Of a DNA stretch of 64,000 nt, positions 121-60,238 are shown piece by piece. Source of the DNA: a virus; IMG/VR virus record IMGVR_UViG_3300037089_000251, positions 1 to 64,000 of that record. One strand, written 5' to 3'. A program made the position numbers and the translations under genes. The notes beneath the pieces were generated by a model, which saw only the letters and a program-made list of their open reading frames with translations, was not told the origin of the DNA and did not search any database. Every line of letters begins with the position of its first letter. The first letter of the stretch is position 1.

Positions 121-196
121 TGGTGGAACTGAAGGGATTCGGACCCTCCGCCTCCTGATTGCAAGTCAGGCGCTCTCCCAAATGAGCTACAGTCCC
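121..196 (-). tRNA. tRNA-Ala(TGC)
   Basis: Cloverleaf; acceptor GGGACTG/CAGTTCC with G3:U70; anticodon loop CTTGCAA; encoded CCA; T-loop reads TCCGAAT. Confidence 0.93.
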
Positions 197-203
197 AGAA
201 AAT

Positions 204-329
204 CGGTGGCGCTAACGGGCCTCGAACCCGTCTCATAACATGGCGTCGTAAGCAAGGGTTCTATGCTGCGAACGCCTCTCTTAATACGCAACCACGTCAG
301 GTTTTATCCATCCCTACAACTATAGCCCC
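204..329 (-). ncRNA. tRNA-like RNA (Ala-like ends) with a ~50-nt insertion in the anticodon arm
   Basis: 5' GGGGCTATAG; T-arm ACGGG-TTCGAGG-CCCGT; 3' TAGCGCC-A-CCG; extended stem TGACGTGG/CCATGTTA encloses a 48-nt insert; G3.G70 mismatch. Confidence 0.65.
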
Positions 330-337
330 ACAAAACT

Positions 338-412
338 TGGAGCGGGCGGAGGGGTTCGGACCCTCGACCTCTGCCTTGGCAAGGCAGCATTCTACCACTG
401 AACTACGCCCGC
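338..412 (-). tRNA. tRNA-Gly(GCC)
   Basis: Cloverleaf; GCGGGCG/CGCCCGC; anticodon loop CTTGCCAA region with GCC; U73; CCA; T-loop TCCGAAC. Confidence 0.95.
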
Positions 413-420
413 TCAAAACT

Positions 421-495
421 TGGTGCGCCGTGAGGGAATCGAACCCCCGACCTCTCCCGTGTGAAGGGAACGCTCTACCGCTGAGCCAACAGCGC
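421..495 (-). tRNA. tRNA-Val(CAC)
   Basis: Cloverleaf; anticodon loop TTCACAC; TTCGA T-loop; ends ACCA. Confidence 0.95.
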
Positions 496-506
496 ACATC
501 CAAACT

Positions 507-581
507 TGGTACACCAGATAGGACTCGAACCTATGGCTTCTTCCTTGTAAGGGAAGCACTCTGCCGCTGAGTTACTGGTGC
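507..581 (-). tRNA. tRNA-Val(TAC)
   Basis: Cloverleaf; CTTCC-CTTACAA-GGAAG anticodon arm; ends ACCA. Confidence 0.95.
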
Positions 582-593
582 TCAATCTCTCCT

Positions 594-627
594 AAAATGC
601 AAAAGGCGCTCGGTGTTCTGAGCGCCT
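594..627 (-). terminator. Intrinsic terminator (attenuator 3:4 hairpin) upstream of the left tRNA array
   Basis: AGGCGCTC/GAGCGCCT 8-bp stem followed by TTTGCATTTT on the minus strand. Confidence 0.75.
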
Positions 628-650
628 CCGGGTTGCTGGATTGGGATTTT

Positions 651-761
651 CTACCCAATCACCCCCGAAGGCGATGTATCGCCTCCCTCACACACGACTG
701 CGGCTTCGGCTATGCCTACTGCTTCGATGTCGCCTAGCGTTATGTGAGTGGCCATATTCAT
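651..761 (-). CDS. Putative attenuator leader peptide, 36 aa (MNMATHITLGDIEAVGIAEAAVVCEGGDTSPSGVIG)
   Basis: ATG 761 to TAG 651, just downstream of the promoter; 16 of codons 10-28 are GNN; overlaps the 1:2 and 2:3 hairpins. Confidence 0.7.
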   Translation of the reverse strand: MNMATHITLGDIEAVGIAEAAVVCEGGDTSPSGVIG

Positions 762-780
762 AGCATTCTCTCGCTGTCTA

Positions 781-820
781 TATAATACCCCCGGTAGTCG
801 TGTTTTTCAGGAAAATTTTA
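781..820 (-). promoter_or_regulatory. Promoter of the left tRNA operon
   Basis: AAAAACACGACTACCGGGGGTATTATA (807-781) is 26/27 identical to 55279-55305; ends in a -10-like TATTAT. Confidence 0.75.
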
Positions 821-54221: not shown

Positions 54222-54548
54222 ATGGGAGCAAAAGCAGCAGTAGCGCCGATAGCGCCGATAGTTATGGAACAGGTCACCTACGACCGCTGGGACCCCGTCT
54301 ACGAGCTTGACATGCGGGGCAAGAAGCCCCCCATCCTTGTCTGGAAGTACGAGGATGCCCCCGAGGAGATAAAGGCGAGGATTATCGCCGAGAACTTCTG
54401 GTTCACCCCCGACTGGGTGGCGCTAAGGCCACCGCAGATAAAGAGCGGGGACATCCCCTGCATGCTGGAGGAAGGCTCCTTCCTCTTCATATCCTCGGGC
54501 ATCGTTGACCTTGAGGACGGCGGGGCCATCTTGGTGGGGAACAAGTAA
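54222..54548 (+). CDS. Hypothetical protein
   Basis: 108-aa ORF in the plus-strand run. Confidence 0.6.
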   Translation: MGAKAAVAPIAPIVMEQVTYDRWDPVYELDMRGKKPPILVWKYEDAPEEIKARIIAENFWFTPDWVALRPPQIKSGDIPCMLEEGSFLFISSGIVDLEDGGAILVGNK

Positions 54549-54680
54549 GGAATCTATGAGCATGCTTGCCGACATCCTGCTGTCTCGTATCCTTTGCCTT
54601 GGGGCAAGCATCTAATGTTGGAACTCAGTATTATCGCTTAGACTGGCTTGGCCAGAATCAAACTACATGGAATGGTTAAT

Positions 54681-55268
54681 ATGAGCACCACCTACTACAA
54701 GTCCAAACGGGCATTTGACGTATCCCTCACTCTTTTGGCGATGCTGGCTGGCCTCCCCCTTTTCCTGGTAATCGCTGCCTCCATCTGGATGACCTCCAAG
54801 GGTCCCATCATCTTCCGGCAGAAGCGGGTGGGGTGGAAGGGCAGGGATTTCATGATGTACAAGTTTCGTACCATGAGGCCCGGAACGAGCAGGCGTCTTG
54901 ACCTCGTCACCAAGAACGACCCACGGGTTACGTGGGTGGGAAGGTTCCTCCGGGCGACCCACCTGGACGAGCTTCCTCAGCTTTTCAACGTCCTCAAGGG
55001 GGACATGAGCTTGGTTGGTCCCCGCCCCGAGGAGTACAATCTGGCACAGCACCTCTCCGAGAACATCCCCGGCTATACCGAGGCTCTCGACATGATGCCG
55101 GGTCTGACGGGTCTTTCGCAGCTTTGCGGCCGGGAAAAGGTAAATGCGCTGGGACGTAGGTTCGAGGTGAGGCTCCACAGGTGGTACAGGCGCAATAGAA
55201 GCTTCGCTTATGACGCCCTTTTGGTTCTGGCCACCGTCCCGCACGTGATTTTGCGCCGGGGCGTGTAA
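54681..55268 (+). CDS. Bacterial sugar transferase (PglC/WcaJ-type phosphoglycosyl transferase domain)
   Basis: KRAFDV, YKFRTM, DPRVTWVGRFLR..LDELPQLFNVLKGDMSLVGPRPE, PGLTG; start uncertain. Confidence 0.92.
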   Translation: MSTTYYKSKRAFDVSLTLLAMLAGLPLFLVIAASIWMTSKGPIIFRQKRVGWKGRDFMMYKFRTMRPGTSRRLDLVTKNDPRVTWVGRFLRATHLDELPQLFNVLKGDMSLVGPRPEEYNLAQHLSENIPGYTEALDMMPGLTGLSQLCGREKVNALGRRFEVRLHRWYRRNRSFAYDALLVLATVPHVILRRGV

Positions 55269-55305
55269 AATAATTCCGAAAAACACGACTACCGGGAGTA
55301 TTATA
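55266..55305 (+). promoter_or_regulatory. Promoter of the right tRNA operon
   Basis: AAAAACACGACTACCGGGAGTATTATA, 26/27 identical to the left copy. Confidence 0.75.
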
Positions 55306-55457
55306 TGAGTGGAGGGAATCACGGGACACCGAGACACCCTCCATATTATAGCCCACGACTCCTACATTCCCCGGCAAGACCGTGGATGGCACCAAGGGGG
55401 GTCGGAAATTCTGAGGGGGCGGACGCCCGGCGACTGCCCCCTCTTAGAGATTGCACC

Positions 55458-55535
55458 ATGCTGATGAACGTCACCATGCCGCACACACAAACGCAGACCC
55501 AAATTAGGGCTGGCGGCGGAGCCTGCTCGGGATAA
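55458..55535 (+). CDS. Putative attenuator leader peptide, 25 aa (MLMNVTMPHTQTQTQIRAGGGACSG)
   Basis: Contains ACA CAA ACG CAG ACC CAA ATT; overlaps the antiterminator; terminator begins 24 nt after the stop. Confidence 0.78.
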   Translation: MLMNVTMPHTQTQTQIRAGGGACSG

Positions 55536-55558
55536 TAAAATCCGAGCCGAGACTCTTC

Positions 55559-55588
55559 AGCCGCCCAAAAGGCGGCTTTCGTGTTTTT
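55559..55588 (+). terminator. Intrinsic terminator (attenuator) upstream of the right tRNA operon
   Basis: AGCCGCC-CAAAA-GGCGGCT followed by TTCGTGTTTTT. Confidence 0.75.
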
Positions 55589-55754
55589 AGGGGGGTTATG
55601 GGCAGCGTGAGCTTGACCGAGGTTGACAGGAACGACCCTTGGGATGTATTCTTGGACAAGCACCTTCCCGAGAAGGAAGATACTCAGGAGGCAGGTGCTC
55701 CAAGGCGGGGCGGTATCCGCTTGGTAAAAAGCGGCGGCACCGGGATGCGGAGGC

Positions 55755-56123
55755 ATGATGGCCAAGTTCGAGCAGCATTGCTTCGATTGCAAGGCTATCC
55801 TCGGCAATAGGCATGAGGAAGTCAATCGGTGGATGGACGGGCTGTTCTGGAAGAAGGGACCCGCCCACAGGCGCTTCCGGCACCACATGCACGGGGTCAG
55901 GAAGGCACAGGAGCTTTTCGGTCCCGAGGGAGCCAAGGCAGCCATCGTCCACATCGTCAGGGACATGGGTGCGGTGCCGAGGGAGAGGGACTACGACGAG
56001 GTACCGGAGGGGGTCACGATTTTCCCCACTTTCTGTGCCCCGCCGCTAGGCTTCGACCAGCACTTTGACATGTTTCAAGAGAAGACCGAGGAAGAGATTA
56101 AGAGGATTCTGGGGGAGACGTAA
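55755..56123 (+). CDS. Hypothetical protein (DUF6915-like His-rich motif)
   Basis: H...WMD...HRRFRHH..G....FG......HI..D.G; GGAGG RBS. Confidence 0.6.
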   Translation: MMAKFEQHCFDCKAILGNRHEEVNRWMDGLFWKKGPAHRRFRHHMHGVRKAQELFGPEGAKAAIVHIVRDMGAVPRERDYDEVPEGVTIFPTFCAPPLGFDQHFDMFQEKTEEEIKRILGET

Positions 56124-56205
56124 GGGATAGACCATGGGGTTTCCGGGCAGTATTGAGCCGTGCAATGAGGCTCCATAGCCCCCTTTTCCTCCCCCATCAG
56201 GTTTT

Positions 56206-56281
56206 TGGCGGGTAGCTCATCTGGCAGAGCGCAGTCCTGATAAGACTGAGGTGATGGGTTCAACTCCCATACCGCCAACCA
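56206..56281 (+). tRNA. tRNA-Ile(GAT)
   Basis: CAGTC-CTGATAA-GACTG anticodon arm; ends ACCA; G7.A66 mismatch. Confidence 0.88.
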
Positions 56282-56285
56282 TATT

Positions 56286-56618
56286 ATGGAAAAACGGCTC
56301 CTGTTCTCGCTCACGAAGAGCGATTTCGACTTCGAGACGTTCTGTACGGGAGGCAAGGGAGGACAGCACCGCAATGCCAAGCAGAACGGGGTGCGCTGCA
56401 TCCATCCTCCGTCCGGGGCACGGGCGGAGCACCGTGACGGGCGGGACCAGTACCGTAACAAGCAGGAGGCTTTCCGCAAGTGCGTCGGGTCCCCGGAGTT
56501 CAAGGCATGGCACCGGCTGGAAGTGGCCAGAAGGCTGGGGCAGCTTGGTGACATCGAGCGCAGGGTAGATGAGATGATGCGCTCGGAGAACCTGAAGTTT
56601 GAGTTAGTGGAAGCATAG
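56286..56618 (+). CDS. GGQ-motif peptidyl-tRNA hydrolase (PrfH/ArfB-like mini release factor)
   Basis: TGGKGGQHRNAKQNGVRCIHPPSG...R.QYRNK; 110 aa, no stop-codon recognition domain. Confidence 0.88.
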   Translation: MEKRLLFSLTKSDFDFETFCTGGKGGQHRNAKQNGVRCIHPPSGARAEHRDGRDQYRNKQEAFRKCVGSPEFKAWHRLEVARRLGQLGDIERRVDEMMRSENLKFELVEA

Positions 56619-56624
56619 TTTTGT

Positions 56625-56699
56625 GGCACCGTCGTCCAGCGGCTAGGACCTCCGCCCGATTAGCGGAAGACCTCGGTTCGAGTCCGAGCGGGGCTACCA
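56625..56699 (+). tRNA. Atypical tRNA, anticodon GAT on a Glu/Gln-like body
   Basis: Cloverleaf with loop CCGATTA (C33, U37), A4.G69 mismatch, ends ACCA. Confidence 0.6.
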
Positions 56700-56702
56700 A
56701 GT

Positions 56703-56812
56703 TTGTGGGGCGGTAGGACTCCGCTTAATCGAGCGAGCCGAGGGAGTGACCCCGGCAGTGTCGTACCTTAAAGTGGCGTACACACGCAAGAATTCAATAG
56801 ACTCGCCCACAA
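56703..56812 (+). ncRNA. Unidentified ~110-nt multibranch RNA inside the tRNA array
   Basis: Closing stem TTGTGGG(G)CG/CGCCCACAA plus three internal hairpins. Confidence 0.5.
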
Positions 56813-56868
56813 GGTTTAGCTCGCCTGCCATGCGCAGGAGGAGTTGAGGTCGCCTTAGGCGTCCTTTG

Positions 56869-56944
56869 GCCGGTGTAGTTCAGTTGGCAGAACGCACGCC
56901 TCGTAAGCGTGAAGTCGCAGGTTCGATGCCTGTCACCGGCTCCA
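56869..56944 (+). tRNA. tRNA-Thr(CGT)
   Basis: Canonical cloverleaf; loop CTCGTAA; CCA. Confidence 0.95.
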
Positions 56945-56950
56945 TTTTCT

Positions 56951-57025
56951 GCTGCCGTATCACAGTGGTAGTGAGCCTGCTTGGTAAGCAGGAGGTCGCT
57001 GGTTCGAGTCCAGCCGGTAGCTCCA
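56951..57025 (+). tRNA. tRNA-Thr(GGT)
   Basis: Cloverleaf; loop TTGGTAA; CCA. Confidence 0.93.
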
Positions 57026-57031
57026 TTTTAA

Positions 57032-57106
57032 GCCTTCGTAGCTCAGTGGCAGAGCGCTTCCTTGGTAAGGAAGAGGTCGTGGGTTCGATTCCCACCTTCG
57101 GCTCCA
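57032..57106 (+). tRNA. tRNA-Thr(GGT) with a 3-nt acceptor-stem bubble
   Basis: Acceptor GCCTTCG/CTTCGGC (positions 4-6 unpaired); otherwise canonical. Confidence 0.8.
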
Positions 57107-57110
57107 TTTG

Positions 57111-57185
57111 GTCGGTGTAGCTCAGTTGCAGAGCGCCGGTCCCGTAAACCGGAGGTCGGGGGTTCAAAACCCCTCATCGGCTCCA
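57111..57185 (+). tRNA. tRNA-Thr(CGT), atypical (C33, no D-loop GG)
   Basis: CCGGT-CCCGTAA-ACCGG anticodon arm; CCA. Confidence 0.75.
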
Positions 57186-57198
57186 TCTTGAGGTTATC

Positions 57199-57408
57199 AT
57201 GTGGCGTCAGGGAAGATTTCGGAAGACGAACGATGGCCAAGCCCCACGCTTCACCTATATGATATGCTGGGTGGAGGACAGGGCAGCCCTGAAGGTCGGG
57301 AAGTTCGTTAACTTCAAGGATGTCGAGGGTCTGTGGGAGGTCACTTGGCTATCGACCATAACCAGCAAGACCCGCCCCCGTCAGACCTGGCATGTCGGGG
57401 GACTATAA
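57199..57408 (+). CDS. Small hypothetical protein within the tRNA array
   Basis: 69 aa, GAGG RBS; fills the gap between two tRNAs. Confidence 0.6.
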   Translation: MWRQGRFRKTNDGQAPRFTYMICWVEDRAALKVGKFVNFKDVEGLWEVTWLSTITSKTRPRQTWHVGGL

Positions 57409-57412
57409 GTTT

Positions 57413-57497
57413 GCTACCGTGGCTCAGCGGCGACAGCACCGGTTTTGTAAACCGGCAGAGAAATCTCACAGCGGTTCGAGTCCGCTCGGTAGCTCCA
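57413..57497 (+). tRNA. tRNA-Thr(TGT) with a long variable arm
   Basis: Loop TTTGTAA; 14-nt variable region CAGAGAAATCTCAC; CCA. Confidence 0.85.
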
Positions 57498-57553
57498 GTT
57501 TGTGGTTGCCATCTGCATGGTTTATGATGCGTCTGGCAACCAAGTAAGGTTGT

Positions 57554-57629
57554 TCCGGGGTCACTTCTAACGGTAGGAAACTGGGCTTTGAACCCAGGAA
57601 TGGGGGTTCGACTCCCTCCCCCGGAACCA
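57554..57629 (+). tRNA. tRNA-Gln(TTG)
   Basis: U1-A72; CTGGG-CTTTGAA-CCCAG; ends ACCA. Confidence 0.88.
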
Positions 57630-57636
57630 AGATTGT

Positions 57637-57710
57637 TCCAGAGTCGTCTAACGTAGGATGCCGCTCTTTGAAAGCGTGCGATGGGGGTTCGATTCCACCC
57701 TCTGGAACCA
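57637..57710 (+). tRNA. tRNA-Gln(TTG), atypical
   Basis: Loop CTTTGAA; no D-loop GG; mismatches in the anticodon and T stems; ends ACCA. Confidence 0.75.
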
Positions 57711-57785
57711 AAGTTAAAGTCCATTATACGACACCTTAAGTTTTCCCGAAAAATCAGTTCTGGCCACGGTATTATGACTTGCAGT

Positions 57786-57856
57786 GCTGAGGCTATGGGG
57801 GCGCTTCCTTCTAAATTGACTCATACTCAAACCCTAGCTCCCCCGGTTTCCTCAGC
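57786..57856 (+). ncRNA. UCCUUCUA-loop RNA motif, copy 1
   Basis: GCTGAGG/CCTCAGC, CTAT.GGTTT internal loop, GGGGG/CCCCC, GCT/AGC; preceded by CGGTATTAT. Confidence 0.72.
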
Positions 57857-57892
57857 GTAATTTTTGGATTTACCCGGTATTCTATAAGTGGT

Positions 57893-57955
57893 GGCTGGCT
57901 ATGGGGGCGCTTCCTTCTATTCCTTTGGCGAAAATAGCTCTCCTGATTTCCAGCC
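57893..57955 (+). ncRNA. UCCUUCUA-loop RNA motif, copy 2
   Basis: GGCTGG/CCAGCC, CTAT.GATTT, GGGGG/CTCCT, GCT/AGC; preceded by CGGTATTCT. Confidence 0.72.
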
Positions 57956-58045
57956 CCGTTCTCATCCCAGTTCCTAGTGATTAGTCCGCATCAAGGTCAC
58001 GGTTGCTACAGCCGAGGCATAGCCTCGTGCCCGAGGAGGCTGAAA

Positions 58046-60238
58046 ATGGAGAACAAGAAGCTGAACACCATACTGATTCGCCGCAAGGGACTCGTGTTGG
58101 TCCCGGATGCGACTACGCCGTTCCCCACTGGGGCTGATGCCGTCGTTCATCGTGACCGCATGAAGACCCTTCTCGCCACCTTCAACCGGAACCTTCAGGA
58201 CATCGGCTACACCCTGTCGGCGAAGCTCATCAAGGCACTCTGCCTTGCGGACGAGCGCTATGCCCTCAACACCATGAAGTCCATCCTTGAAATCGTCAAG
58301 GAACTCGGCGGCGTCAAGCACTATTACCCGATGTACCCGAACTTCCCCGAGCAGGTCATCCAGATGGAGGAGGCGGAGCTTTACCTGAACGCCGTCTTCC
58401 ACTACTTCTCCGACTGGCTCGCCGATATCTCGGGCGACCGGGACTACATCTGGATGCCCCGCTACCACAAGGACCACCGGGAGCCGCTGCACGAGAAGGT
58501 CAAGCTGCGTGTGCTCGACCTCGGCACCGAAGATTATGTGAACACCCTGGCGACCCAGCTTGCCACCGCCAATACCTCCCTGTCGCCGACCGACAAGGCA
58601 GACCTGGCAGTCCTCATCGCCGATTTCAGGAAGCTGCCGGAAGGCATCCCCAACAAGGAGAACCTTGCCTTCGTGGCTTCCGTCCTGTTCCAGAGGGTGG
58701 AGGACCTGACCCCGTACTTCAAGACCGCCACCGATGTCCTTCGGCTCGCCACGGCGCTGAGCGAGGGGGACGTGTCCCTTGCCGCCCCGTCGAAGTTCCG
58801 CAAGTTCAAGAGGGTCGAACGGCGCAGGCTGCTTGACCTGATTGACCACTGCGGCAACCTTCAGGAGGACATGCTGCGCTTCGAGGGACGGTGGGTGAAG
58901 CTCTCCGAGCGCCTGCACCCCGGCGACTACTGGGACAAGTACCAGAAGGCGTTCTCGGCGATTCAGGCCATCCGCAACGGGCACACCGACCAGACCTTCC
59001 GCTCCAAGGTGGAGGAGGCTGTCCGGGGCGGGAAGGTTAAGGCTGCCGTCGAGCTTCTGGGGGACCGCCCCGGCGAGTTCGGCCGCCGTCTCGACCACTT
59101 GGTTCGGAAGGCCCGCACCAAGGATGCCAAGGTTGCGGCCATCCAGGGATTCCTTGACGTTGCGTCCGTCGCCTCGACCCCCGTGCTGCTCCAGATGATG
59201 GCGCACTTCGACCACCGTCAGGACGGAACGGACAGGACCATCTTCCCCAAGGGGAACGTGGCCAAGGTCATGAGCATCGACCCTCTCCCGGAGATGGACG
59301 GGGAGCTTTCCAAGCTGGTGTCCCGTGGCATCCGCCGTGTCCTCCGCAAGCGGTTCAGCGAGCTACCGGAGCTTGGGAACGTATACCTCGACCCGGCGCT
59401 CAAGGACTACCTGCTCCCTTTCAGCCAGAGGAGCGCCTCGAAGGCATTGAGGACGCTCGTCCGGGGCAGCCACATCCCGTTCGGATTTTCGGACAAGAAC
59501 ACCATCCGCCTGTTCATCTGGTGGAAGGAGCCGAAGGGGGGGTTGCAGGGGGAGTGGTCCGACCGTGTGGACCTCGACCTGTCGGCGGTCGCCTATGCCG
59601 ATGGCTGGAGGAACTTGGGTGCGGTCGCCTACTACGACTTGCGGAACGACTATGCCCGGCACTCCGGGGACATCACGTCCGCCCCGAAGGGAGCGAGCGA
59701 GTTCATTGACATCGACATCAACAAGGCGCTTGCGGCCGGTGTCCGCTACATCGTCATGAGCGTCAACAGCTACACCGAGCAGAACCTCTGTGACCTTCCT
59801 GAGTGCTATGCCGGTTGGATGCTCCGGGAGAAGCCGCAGTCCGGGGAGGTCTATGACCCTCGTACCCTTGAGGACAAGGTTGACCTCGCCATGCAGGCGA
59901 CGGCGGGAATCCCGCTCATCGCCGACCTGGTGGAGCGCAAGCTCATCTGGTGCGATGCCGCCATGTCGGTAAACCGCTACCGCTGGAACAATGTCGAGAG
60001 CAACAAGGGGACCATCGAGCTTCTCGGCAAGGCTCTGGAGAATGTCACCAAGCCGAGCATCTACGACCTGCTCTACCTGCACGCCAAGGCCCGTGGGACG
60101 CTCGTGGAAGACCGTAAGAAGGCGGATGTGGAGTTCTCCGTCGCCAAGGGCACCCAGTATGACCTTGAGAGGCTTGCCTCCGAGTTCATGGCGGATGCCC
60201 CCAAGGCGATGCCGAAGGCACACACCGCAGCGGCGTAA
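58046..60238 (+). CDS. Large helical-repeat protein with C-terminal TerD-like domain (possible Ro60/TROVE relative)
   Basis: PMYPNFP, ENLA, TATDVLRLA, RPGEFGRRLDHL; C-terminal RVDLDLSA...HSGDITSAPKGASEFID; GAGGAGG RBS. Confidence 0.8.
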   Translation: MENKKLNTILIRRKGLVLVPDATTPFPTGADAVVHRDRMKTLLATFNRNLQDIGYTLSAKLIKALCLADERYALNTMKSILEIVKELGGVKHYYPMYPNFPEQVIQMEEAELYLNAVFHYFSDWLADISGDRDYIWMPRYHKDHREPLHEKVKLRVLDLGTEDYVNTLATQLATANTSLSPTDKADLAVLIADFRKLPEGIPNKENLAFVASVLFQRVEDLTPYFKTATDVLRLATALSEGDVSLAAPSKFRKFKRVERRRLLDLIDHCGNLQEDMLRFEGRWVKLSERLHPGDYWDKYQKAFSAIQAIRNGHTDQTFRSKVEEAVRGGKVKAAVELLGDRPGEFGRRLDHLVRKARTKDAKVAAIQGFLDVASVASTPVLLQMMAHFDHRQDGTDRTIFPKGNVAKVMSIDPLPEMDGELSKLVSRGIRRVLRKRFSELPELGNVYLDPALKDYLLPFSQRSASKALRTLVRGSHIPFGFSDKNTIRLFIWWKEPKGGLQGEWSDRVDLDLSAVAYADGWRNLGAVAYYDLRNDYARHSGDITSAPKGASEFIDIDINKALAAGVRYIVMSVNSYTEQNLCDLPECYAGWMLREKPQSGEVYDPRTLEDKVDLAMQATAGIPLIADLVERKLIWCDAAMSVNRYRWNNVESNKGTIELLGKALENVTKPSIYDLLYLHAKARGTLVEDRKKADVEFSVAKGTQYDLERLASEFMADAPKAMPKAHTAAA

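Follow-up and report, generated by a model that had tools for sequence, protein, structure and literature searches.

The stretch of DNA analyzed here (the window; 64,000 nucleotides) corresponds to positions 1-64,000 of a single 104.5-kb contig with 58% G+C, which is registered as a virus record (IMG/VR: IMGVR_UViG_3300037089_000251), and it contains 12 tRNA genes together with very large open reading frames (ORFs). Our subject is an operon on the plus strand in which a 25-codon leader ORF and a predicted intrinsic terminator lie ahead of nine tRNA genes for Ile, Thr, and Gln. Its features are as follows (positions in the window).

55278-55306, plus strand: predicted phage-type promoter of the Ile/Thr/Gln operon, with an extended -10-like box at 55297-55304
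55446-55450, plus strand: weak Shine-Dalgarno-like purine run, 8 nt before the ATG of the leader ORF
55458-55535, plus strand: leader ORF of 25 codons; an in-frame ATG at 55464 is an alternative start
55478-55482, plus strand: segment 1 (anti-antiterminator strand), which pairs with 55513-55517 across the regulatory codons in the minimum-free-energy fold
55485-55505, plus strand: regulatory run of seven codons, Thr, Gln, Thr, Gln, Thr, Gln, and Ile, as read from the sequence
55512-55521, plus strand: segment 2, which lies inside the ORF and can form the 5' strand of the antiterminator by pairing with the 5' arm of the terminator
55525-55547, plus strand: inner hairpin, with the stop codon (55533-55535) in its loop
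55559-55588, plus strand: predicted intrinsic terminator (7-bp G+C-rich stem at 55559-55577, 5-nt loop, T-rich tail), matched independently in a terminator scan; the 5' arm is segment 3 and the 3' arm segment 4
55598-55810, plus strand: small ORF overlapping the next gene
55755-56123, plus strand: gene for a DUF6915-like protein (weak Pfam match, below the cut-off), the first conserved gene of the operon
56206-56281, plus strand: tRNA-Ile(GAT) (ARAGORN, Rfam)
56286-56618, plus strand: gene for a stand-alone release-factor catalytic (GGQ) domain protein of 110 aa (Pfam RF-1, 2.5e-10; PHROG 3122)
56625-56699, plus strand: atypical second GAT tRNA, with C instead of U at position 33 and an A.G mismatch in the acceptor stem
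56869-57185, plus strand: four tRNA-Thr genes (CGT, GGT, GGT, and CGT; ARAGORN, Rfam)
57413-57497, plus strand: tRNA-Thr(TGT) of 85 nt, with a long extra arm that is unusual for a Thr tRNA (ARAGORN, Rfam)
57554-57710, plus strand: two tRNA-Gln(TTG) genes at the end of the array (ARAGORN, Rfam)

A first-pass annotation, made from the letters of the window, had described the leader ORF, the codon run, the terminator, and the inner hairpin, and had proposed that 55512-55521 can pair with the 5' arm of the terminator. All of these elements were recovered at the positions it gave, and the pairing is indeed available; the single correction is that the reading frame of the leader is open as far as an ATG at 55305. 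The resulting 76-codon frame was considered as a real ORF and rejected (the frame is interrupted in the relative L007). Since this ATG lies within the -10 box of the promoter and the long frame is shut by a stop codon in the nearest relative, and since only the short ORF is conserved, the short ORF is the unit to consider.

Nine tRNA genes were identified downstream, eight with ARAGORN and one, the second Thr(GGT) gene (57032-57103), with Rfam only; the set, Ile(GAT) x2, Thr(CGT) x2, Thr(GGT) x2, Thr(TGT), and Gln(TTG) x2, is the one that had been claimed. The match to the leader runs in both directions, again as claimed: every codon of the run is covered by a downstream anticodon (CAG and ATT by wobble), and each anticodon has its codon in the run. 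Runs of at least seven of the eight Thr, Gln, and Ile codons that these tRNAs read were sought in all six frames of the 104.5-kb contig, and this is the only one, against an expectation of 0.037 from triplet frequencies and a mean of 0.04 in shuffled genomes.

Relatives of the unit, all of them uncultured phage contigs, were collected from IMG/VR by scans with the DUF6915-like protein, a leader word, and a promoter word. Six further distinct versions of the leader were obtained, and all keep an ORF of 24-25 codons, the stop-codon hairpin, and the terminator, so that the conservation counts given here refer to seven distinct sequences of the Thr/Gln/Ile-type leader. A similar purine run stands ahead of every leader ORF examined. 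The tRNAs 3' of the leader could be read in five relatives and are those for Ile, Thr, and Gln (ARAGORN gave no Ile tRNA in L007); the L050 locus is too short to show downstream tRNAs. In the aligned regulatory run, 48 of the 49 cells hold a Thr, Gln, or Ile codon, and both the order and the choice of synonymous codons differ among the sequences. Variable columns at codon positions 1, 2, and 3 number 10, 9, and 13 of 17 in the 5' half of the ORF versus 0, 2, and 1 of 7 in the 3' half, which contains the RNA helices. Thus, a variable 5' half with a fixed codon class is joined to a frozen 3' half, which points to selection on codon class and RNA structure and not on the peptide; in aligned sequences, this is the pattern by which a leader peptide is recognized.

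The terminator is 100% paired in the seven sequences, two of its pairs being changed on both sides (compensatory), and the inner hairpin shows one compensatory pair change, in L001/L004. Both strands of the segment 1:2 pairing are invariant despite a changing flanking codon, and covariation is absent there. The antiterminator helix, scored as 55512-55517 with 55560-55565 and continued by 55518-55523 with 55549-55556, is paired in 97.6% of the cells. The ORF and the alternative pairings, on whose retention at homologous loci the first-pass annotation had staked its proposal, are kept.

The same design is found a second time in the window, on the minus strand near its left end.

780-808, minus strand: predicted promoter of the second unit, near-identical to 55278-55306 (1 of 29 positions differs)
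651-761, minus strand: second leader ORF of 36 codons, in which 17 of the 19 codons from 10 to 28 are for Gly, Asp, Glu, Ala, Val, or Cys
594-686, minus strand: second attenuator (predicted), with a 1:2 hairpin at 667-686, an inner hairpin at 639-660 with the stop codon in its loop, and a terminator at 594-629
121-581, minus strand: array of tRNA-Val(TAC), Val(CAC), Gly(GCC), and Ala(TGC), truncated by the contig start

The density of GNN codons in the second leader is reached at 12 loci of the contig and is, taken alone, only modestly unusual. The fold of its attenuator has a z of -4.7, and none of 200 shuffles was as good. In the nearest relative, the Val/Gly/Ala array goes on with Gly, Ala, Asp, Val, Glu, and Cys tRNAs; thus, the second leader matches the whole cluster. 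The unit is kept in four more contigs (L082, L083, L098, and L103), in which the terminator stems differ in sequence and remain paired.

A nearly complete relative, G006 (316,945 bp; 99% complete according to CheckV), has 62 tRNA matches in four clusters, every one of which is headed by a promoter box, an ORF of 24-33 codons, and a terminator. The contig studied here is evidently a piece of a G006-like genome with two of the cassettes on board. The four cassettes of G006 are as follows.

Leader rich in Leu, Ser, and Tyr codons: tRNAs for Tyr, six for Leu, and three for Ser
Leader with Arg, Asn, Lys, Pro, Met, Gln, Trp, His, and Phe codons: tRNAs for exactly those amino acids
Leader with Val, Asp, Glu, Ala, Cys, and Gly codons: tRNAs for the GNN-codon set and Cys
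Leader with Thr, Gln, and Ile codons: tRNAs for Ile, Thr, and Gln

When the leader codons of G006 were tabulated against the cluster that decodes them (4 x 4 table), the diagonal held 18, 22, 17, and 10 codons (chi-square 76.5, p 8e-13). The agreement extends to the spelling of Gln, which is CAG in the leader of the cluster with Gln(CTG) and CAA in the leader of the cluster with Gln(TTG). Short ORFs ahead of tRNA arrays, and a correlation of their codons with the anticodons, are what the first-pass annotation had suggested seeking in related phages, and both were found.

The G006 clusters (L092-L095) are sorted by type into Tyr/Leu/Ser, GNN-codon plus Cys, Ile/Thr/Gln(TTG), and the rest, and jointly they read all sense codons but ATA; the Leu and Ser tRNA copies are 85-93 nt long. 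In another contig (L116; IMG/VR contig 3300018019_000005), the promoter and 5' untranslated region of the Tyr/Leu/Ser cassette are present, the leader is absent, and approximately 1.4 kb of other sequence stands before the first tRNA. This may be an insertion by which the attenuator was lost.

More distant phages were reached with an alignment of 23 DUF6915-like homologues, which led to 54 metagenome loci. Where the DUF6915-like protein is 50-60% identical and Ile, Thr, and Gln tRNAs come after its gene, no alignment of the leader with that of the window is possible, and there is nevertheless an ORF of 25-30 codons with 10-15 Thr, Gln, or Ile codons and then a terminator. Tyr/Leu arrays that contain the DUF6915-like gene begin with a leader rich in Leu, Tyr, and Ser codons and a terminator. 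The distance from the stop codon to the terminator stem is 18-27 nt in 16 of 17 other leaders, and in the window leader it is 23 nt, as calculated from the coordinates. On a basis that includes this recurrence in distant phages, the design is probably widespread. In seven of the distant Thr/Gln/Ile leaders (L166, L167, L169, L174, L175, L183, and L192), the run opens with CGA, an Arg codon, and continues with Ile and Thr codons; the nucleotides of this Arg-Ile-Thr stretch are conserved among the seven and the rest is unalignable. In L166 and L167, ARAGORN places one or two tRNAs with a CTA anticodon (amber-reading) just 5' of the Thr/Gln/Ile leader.

The 161-nt leader RNA of the window is more stable than 199 of 200 dinucleotide shuffles (z -3.0), and in all six leaders folded the stop codon lies in a hairpin loop. 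With a ribosome on the first regulatory codon, the antiterminator (55512-55521 with the terminator 5' arm) is the predicted minimum-free-energy fold. Folds of the six leaders were computed with a ribosome footprint of 12 nt masked on either side of the A site, moved over successive codons; these are model computations. In the window leader, the antiterminator supplants the terminator only with the A site on the first three regulatory codons, where the modelled terminator probability is 0.12-0.24 versus approximately 0.55 elsewhere, and in the second leader the switch comes with the A site on the Val, Cys, Glu, and Gly codons (0.37-0.56 versus 0.93). When the transcripts were cut before the 3' arm of the terminator, the 5' arm was paired upstream in the six leaders as long as the ribosome was on or before the run, and it was freed once the ribosome had passed the run in 6 of 6. 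In the masked folds, a ribosome stalled on regulatory codons would thus leave the antiterminator free and a ribosome at the stop codon would block it.

The predicted promoter is retained 5' of the leader in all relatives, regardless of which gene lies further upstream. On the plus strand, no further phage-type promoter box was found in 55298-57769, the next one being at 57769 itself; thus, the tRNAs most simply depend on the promoter at 55278-55306 and on passage through the terminator.

Taken together, the phage tRNA operon is probably under the control of a ribosome-mediated leader-peptide transcription attenuator, each block of tRNAs being tied to the speed at which its own codons are decoded. 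This agrees with the proposal in the first-pass annotation, which has gained support from conservation, from replicates with other amino acids, from the distant phages, and from the lack of an internal phage-type promoter. From these sequences, we infer that the leader is translated, that transcription stops at the terminator, in which direction the switch works, and that the tRNAs are co-transcribed. In the scheme that we propose, transcription would begin at 55278-55306, and a ribosome would load on the 25-codon leader and trail the polymerase. If the codons at 55485-55505 were read fast, the ribosome would enter segment 2 and the stop-codon hairpin, the 5' arm of the terminator would stay free, the terminator at 55559-55588 would form, and transcription would stop. 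If the aminoacyl-tRNA for any codon of the run were scarce, the ribosome would linger there, segment 2 would pair with the terminator 5' arm, and antitermination would let the polymerase read through into the gene for the DUF6915-like protein, the gene for the GGQ-domain protein, and the nine Ile/Thr/Gln tRNA genes. The outcome would be a negative feedback in which the output of the tRNA block depends on how fast its own codons are decoded. The second unit (594-808) would apply the same control to the tRNAs for GNN codons.

Several observations weigh against this scheme or limit it. The Shine-Dalgarno-like site at 55446-55450 is a weaker match to the consensus than the sites before 55598 and 55755, and the T tract of the terminator is interrupted. 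The antiterminator helix is invariant in the seven sequences and has no support from covariation. The run of one relative includes a Ser codon, which, as the cluster there has no Ser tRNA, is simply foreign, and the distant leaders contain foreign Arg and Ser codons. A match to the sigma-70-like consensus (10 of 12 positions) at 55623-55652, within the small ORF and 3' of the terminator, could provide a bypass; such matches occur in the region at chance frequency (3 found versus 2.1 expected). The device would also react to amino-acid starvation and not only to tRNA loss. As for folding, the two alternative structures that had been proposed from the sequence are both obtainable and the leader as a whole surpasses nearly all shuffles, as given above, but the upstream pairing of the terminator 5' arm is not above the shuffled level: 78 and 72 of 200 shuffles equalled the two leaders of the window, and the control was clearly beaten only by clusters B and C of G006. 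Since the control was not beaten in the window, folding shows compatibility and not proof, and the masked folds are not counted as independent evidence. What carries the case is the match of codons, its replication, and the pattern of conservation, with which the folding is compatible.

Other readings of the same parts were weighed against the attenuator. The leader might work as a general sensor, of overall translation capacity or of transcription-translation coupling (for instance, during host shut-off), or the switch might act on how the RNA is processed, how stable it is, or how well the next gene is translated, instead of on termination. Even with no ribosome on the truncated transcripts, the 5' arm of the terminator is already mostly paired with upstream sequence, and absent translation alone may thus give readthrough; moreover, the T tract of the terminator overlaps the ribosome-binding site of the next gene, and the fold support for a codon-specific switch is weak in the window. 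However, a general sensor has no need of leader codons that match the cluster, down to CAG versus CAA for Gln, and no need to keep the codon make-up while the sequence diverges, and we regard this reading as improbable. A run of this kind could also be a coincidence, that is, an in-frame low-complexity stretch beside an unrelated terminator, and it does overlap an A/C-rich stretch of low-complexity appearance. However, only 0.04 such runs are expected in the contig, relatives conserve the run, the design recurs, and the leaders of the relatives lose neither the frame nor the make-up; coincidence is scarcely credible.

The short ORF might instead encode a functional micro-protein, or be a neutral upstream ORF, with the hairpin an ordinary terminator and the tRNAs transcribed from an unrecognised promoter of their own. 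The conserved C-terminal half of the peptide would fit a micro-protein, and the consensus match at 55623-55652 would fit a separate promoter. However, in the conserved half the nucleotides themselves are frozen, third positions included, which argues for RNA structure; the variable half retains its codon class and not its sequence; and four unrelated leaders share a common layout, each matched to its own cluster. In addition, the next gene begins directly after the T tract in most relatives, so that there is no room for another promoter. We consider this explanation highly improbable.

A wider reading joins the attenuators to the rest of the operon. In it, the tRNA blocks would serve as inducible counter-defence cassettes: depletion of particular tRNAs, by an anticodon nuclease of the host or by another response, would stall ribosomes on the matching leader, and only then would the phage produce replacement tRNAs, some with atypical and perhaps cleavage-resistant anticodon loops, along with the GGQ-domain factor that would free the stalled ribosomes. 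The four cassettes would monitor all 20 amino acids. We put this forward tentatively and, as a whole, think it rather unlikely; a defence nuclease or toxin as the trigger, which the first-pass annotation had offered as an example, is speculation.

Leader-peptide attenuation is a textbook mechanism, approximately fifty years old, that is tied to amino-acid supply. Among the enterobacterial leaders, several are multivalent, such as thr, with Thr and Ile codons, and ilvGMEDA, with Ile, Leu, and Val codons; trp, his, leu, and phe leaders are also known. The phage unit is like the enterobacterial attenuators in its promoter-proximal short ORF with regulatory codons, in the terminator before the first structural gene, and in the predicted alternative helix that would use the 5' arm of the terminator, the stall position picking the structure in the model; distances and geometry are comparable with those of the trp leader. 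It is unlike them in that it would control tRNA genes and two small proteins instead of biosynthetic enzymes, in that one phage leader can hold codons of up to nine amino acids, mirroring the tRNA cluster, and in that the element sits in phage genomes, with several copies in each. T-box riboswitches are similar to the unit in coupling terminator readthrough to the state of a specific tRNA. T-box RNAs recognize uncharged tRNA by direct contact, using a specifier codon and the conserved T-box sequence and no translation, and their targets are aminoacyl-tRNA synthetase and amino-acid genes, whereas the conserved phage unit is an ORF with start and stop codons. No match to the Rfam leader families or the T-box was obtained at E up to 1 in 54500-58500 or in 1-1200, where only tRNA models reach the threshold.

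In our literature searches, no account was found, for phages or any other system, of tRNA genes controlled by leader-peptide attenuation, in agreement with the first-pass annotation, whose author was not aware of any. Of the systems in print, the trn operon of Anabaena sp. PCC 7120 comes nearest: its array of accessory tRNAs stays silent by default and is turned on when translation is impaired, under the control of promoter direct repeats and the repressor TrcR (PMC8421152, PMC10272220). It resembles the phage operon in providing stress-induced accessory tRNAs and differs in being controlled at the promoter; a leader, an attenuator, or ribosome stalling is nowhere mentioned in these papers. 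Phage-encoded tRNAs are reported to substitute for host tRNAs lost during infection and to allow escape from tRNA-targeting defence (PMC11555353); the rationale is the same as that of the first-pass proposal.

In the cassettes described here, the logic of attenuation is apparently applied to the tRNA pool itself. If true, this would be the first transcriptional feedback that gauges decoding speed per codon and answers with the matching tRNAs, and it would explain both the dosing of tRNAs in giant phages with dozens of tRNA genes and the sorting of those genes into amino-acid-group clusters. It would also offer synthetic biology a modular, ready-made sensor of tRNA availability. The inducer of each leader would tell which role the phage tRNAs have: codon-usage compensation, survival of host shut-off, or escape from tRNA-cleaving defence.

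Among the protein genes of the operon, the small ORF at 55598-55810 is present only in some relatives (L019, L050) and is without a family match in the searches run. For the DUF6915-like protein, 29 homologues were found, many of them within a phage tRNA operon, beside or among the tRNA genes; no NCBIfam or PHROG match was obtained. Its predicted model is all-helical (pLDDT 81.5), and Foldseek returned nothing at E <=0.001 for it; the best Z with VIA-align, 4.7, is at the level of a common arrangement. The similarity of the GGQ-domain protein is confined to the catalytic domain of RF1, RF2, and PrfH; the protein may plausibly free stalled ribosomes. There is also a 69-codon ORF between the block of four Thr tRNAs and Thr(TGT).

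The atypical GAT tRNA is 98.7% identical to the copy in L004, and the oddities of this tRNA and of Thr(TGT) are kept in relatives, in which Thr and Gln tRNAs of 82-88 nt occur. The 169-nt spacer of the array at 56700-56868 has complementary ends and several hairpins (fold z -2.1) and is without an Rfam match; only its last 55 nt align with the relatives. In the second unit, a 141-nt spacer between tRNA-Gly(GCC) and tRNA-Ala(TGC) (197-337, minus strand) has a tRNA-like fold (z -1.9) with a good T arm and a long insert in place of the anticodon arm; only about 5 nt separate these two tRNAs in L083. A two-codon mini-ORF (start, one codon, and stop; 758-766, minus strand) overlaps the start codon of the second leader.

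Two more hairpins lie between the promoter and the Ile/Thr/Gln leader ORF.

55311-55342, plus strand: 5' hairpin at the predicted transcript start, read from the sequence; relatives have a hairpin of different sequence at the same place
55415-55441, plus strand: G+C-rich hairpin just 5' of the leader ORF, read from the sequence; in L006, a hairpin of different sequence is at the same place

As for the phage itself, no cultured relatives were found, and a distant DNA search of a phage collection returned tRNA genes and one release-factor-domain gene only. The latter match was to Tunturi_4, an Acidobacteriota phage that has neither a tRNA cluster nor a leader at the site. PHROG scans of ten large proteins gave names only for a ribonucleotide reductase and a helicase. 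Finally, an exact 18-nt direct repeat (57795-57812 and 57901-57918; 0.09 expected) lies 3' of the promoter box at 57769. A small ORF begins with each copy, the first six residues of the two being identical, and both stretches are kept in relatives; these ORFs may be another type of leader before the 753-residue gene at 57977.

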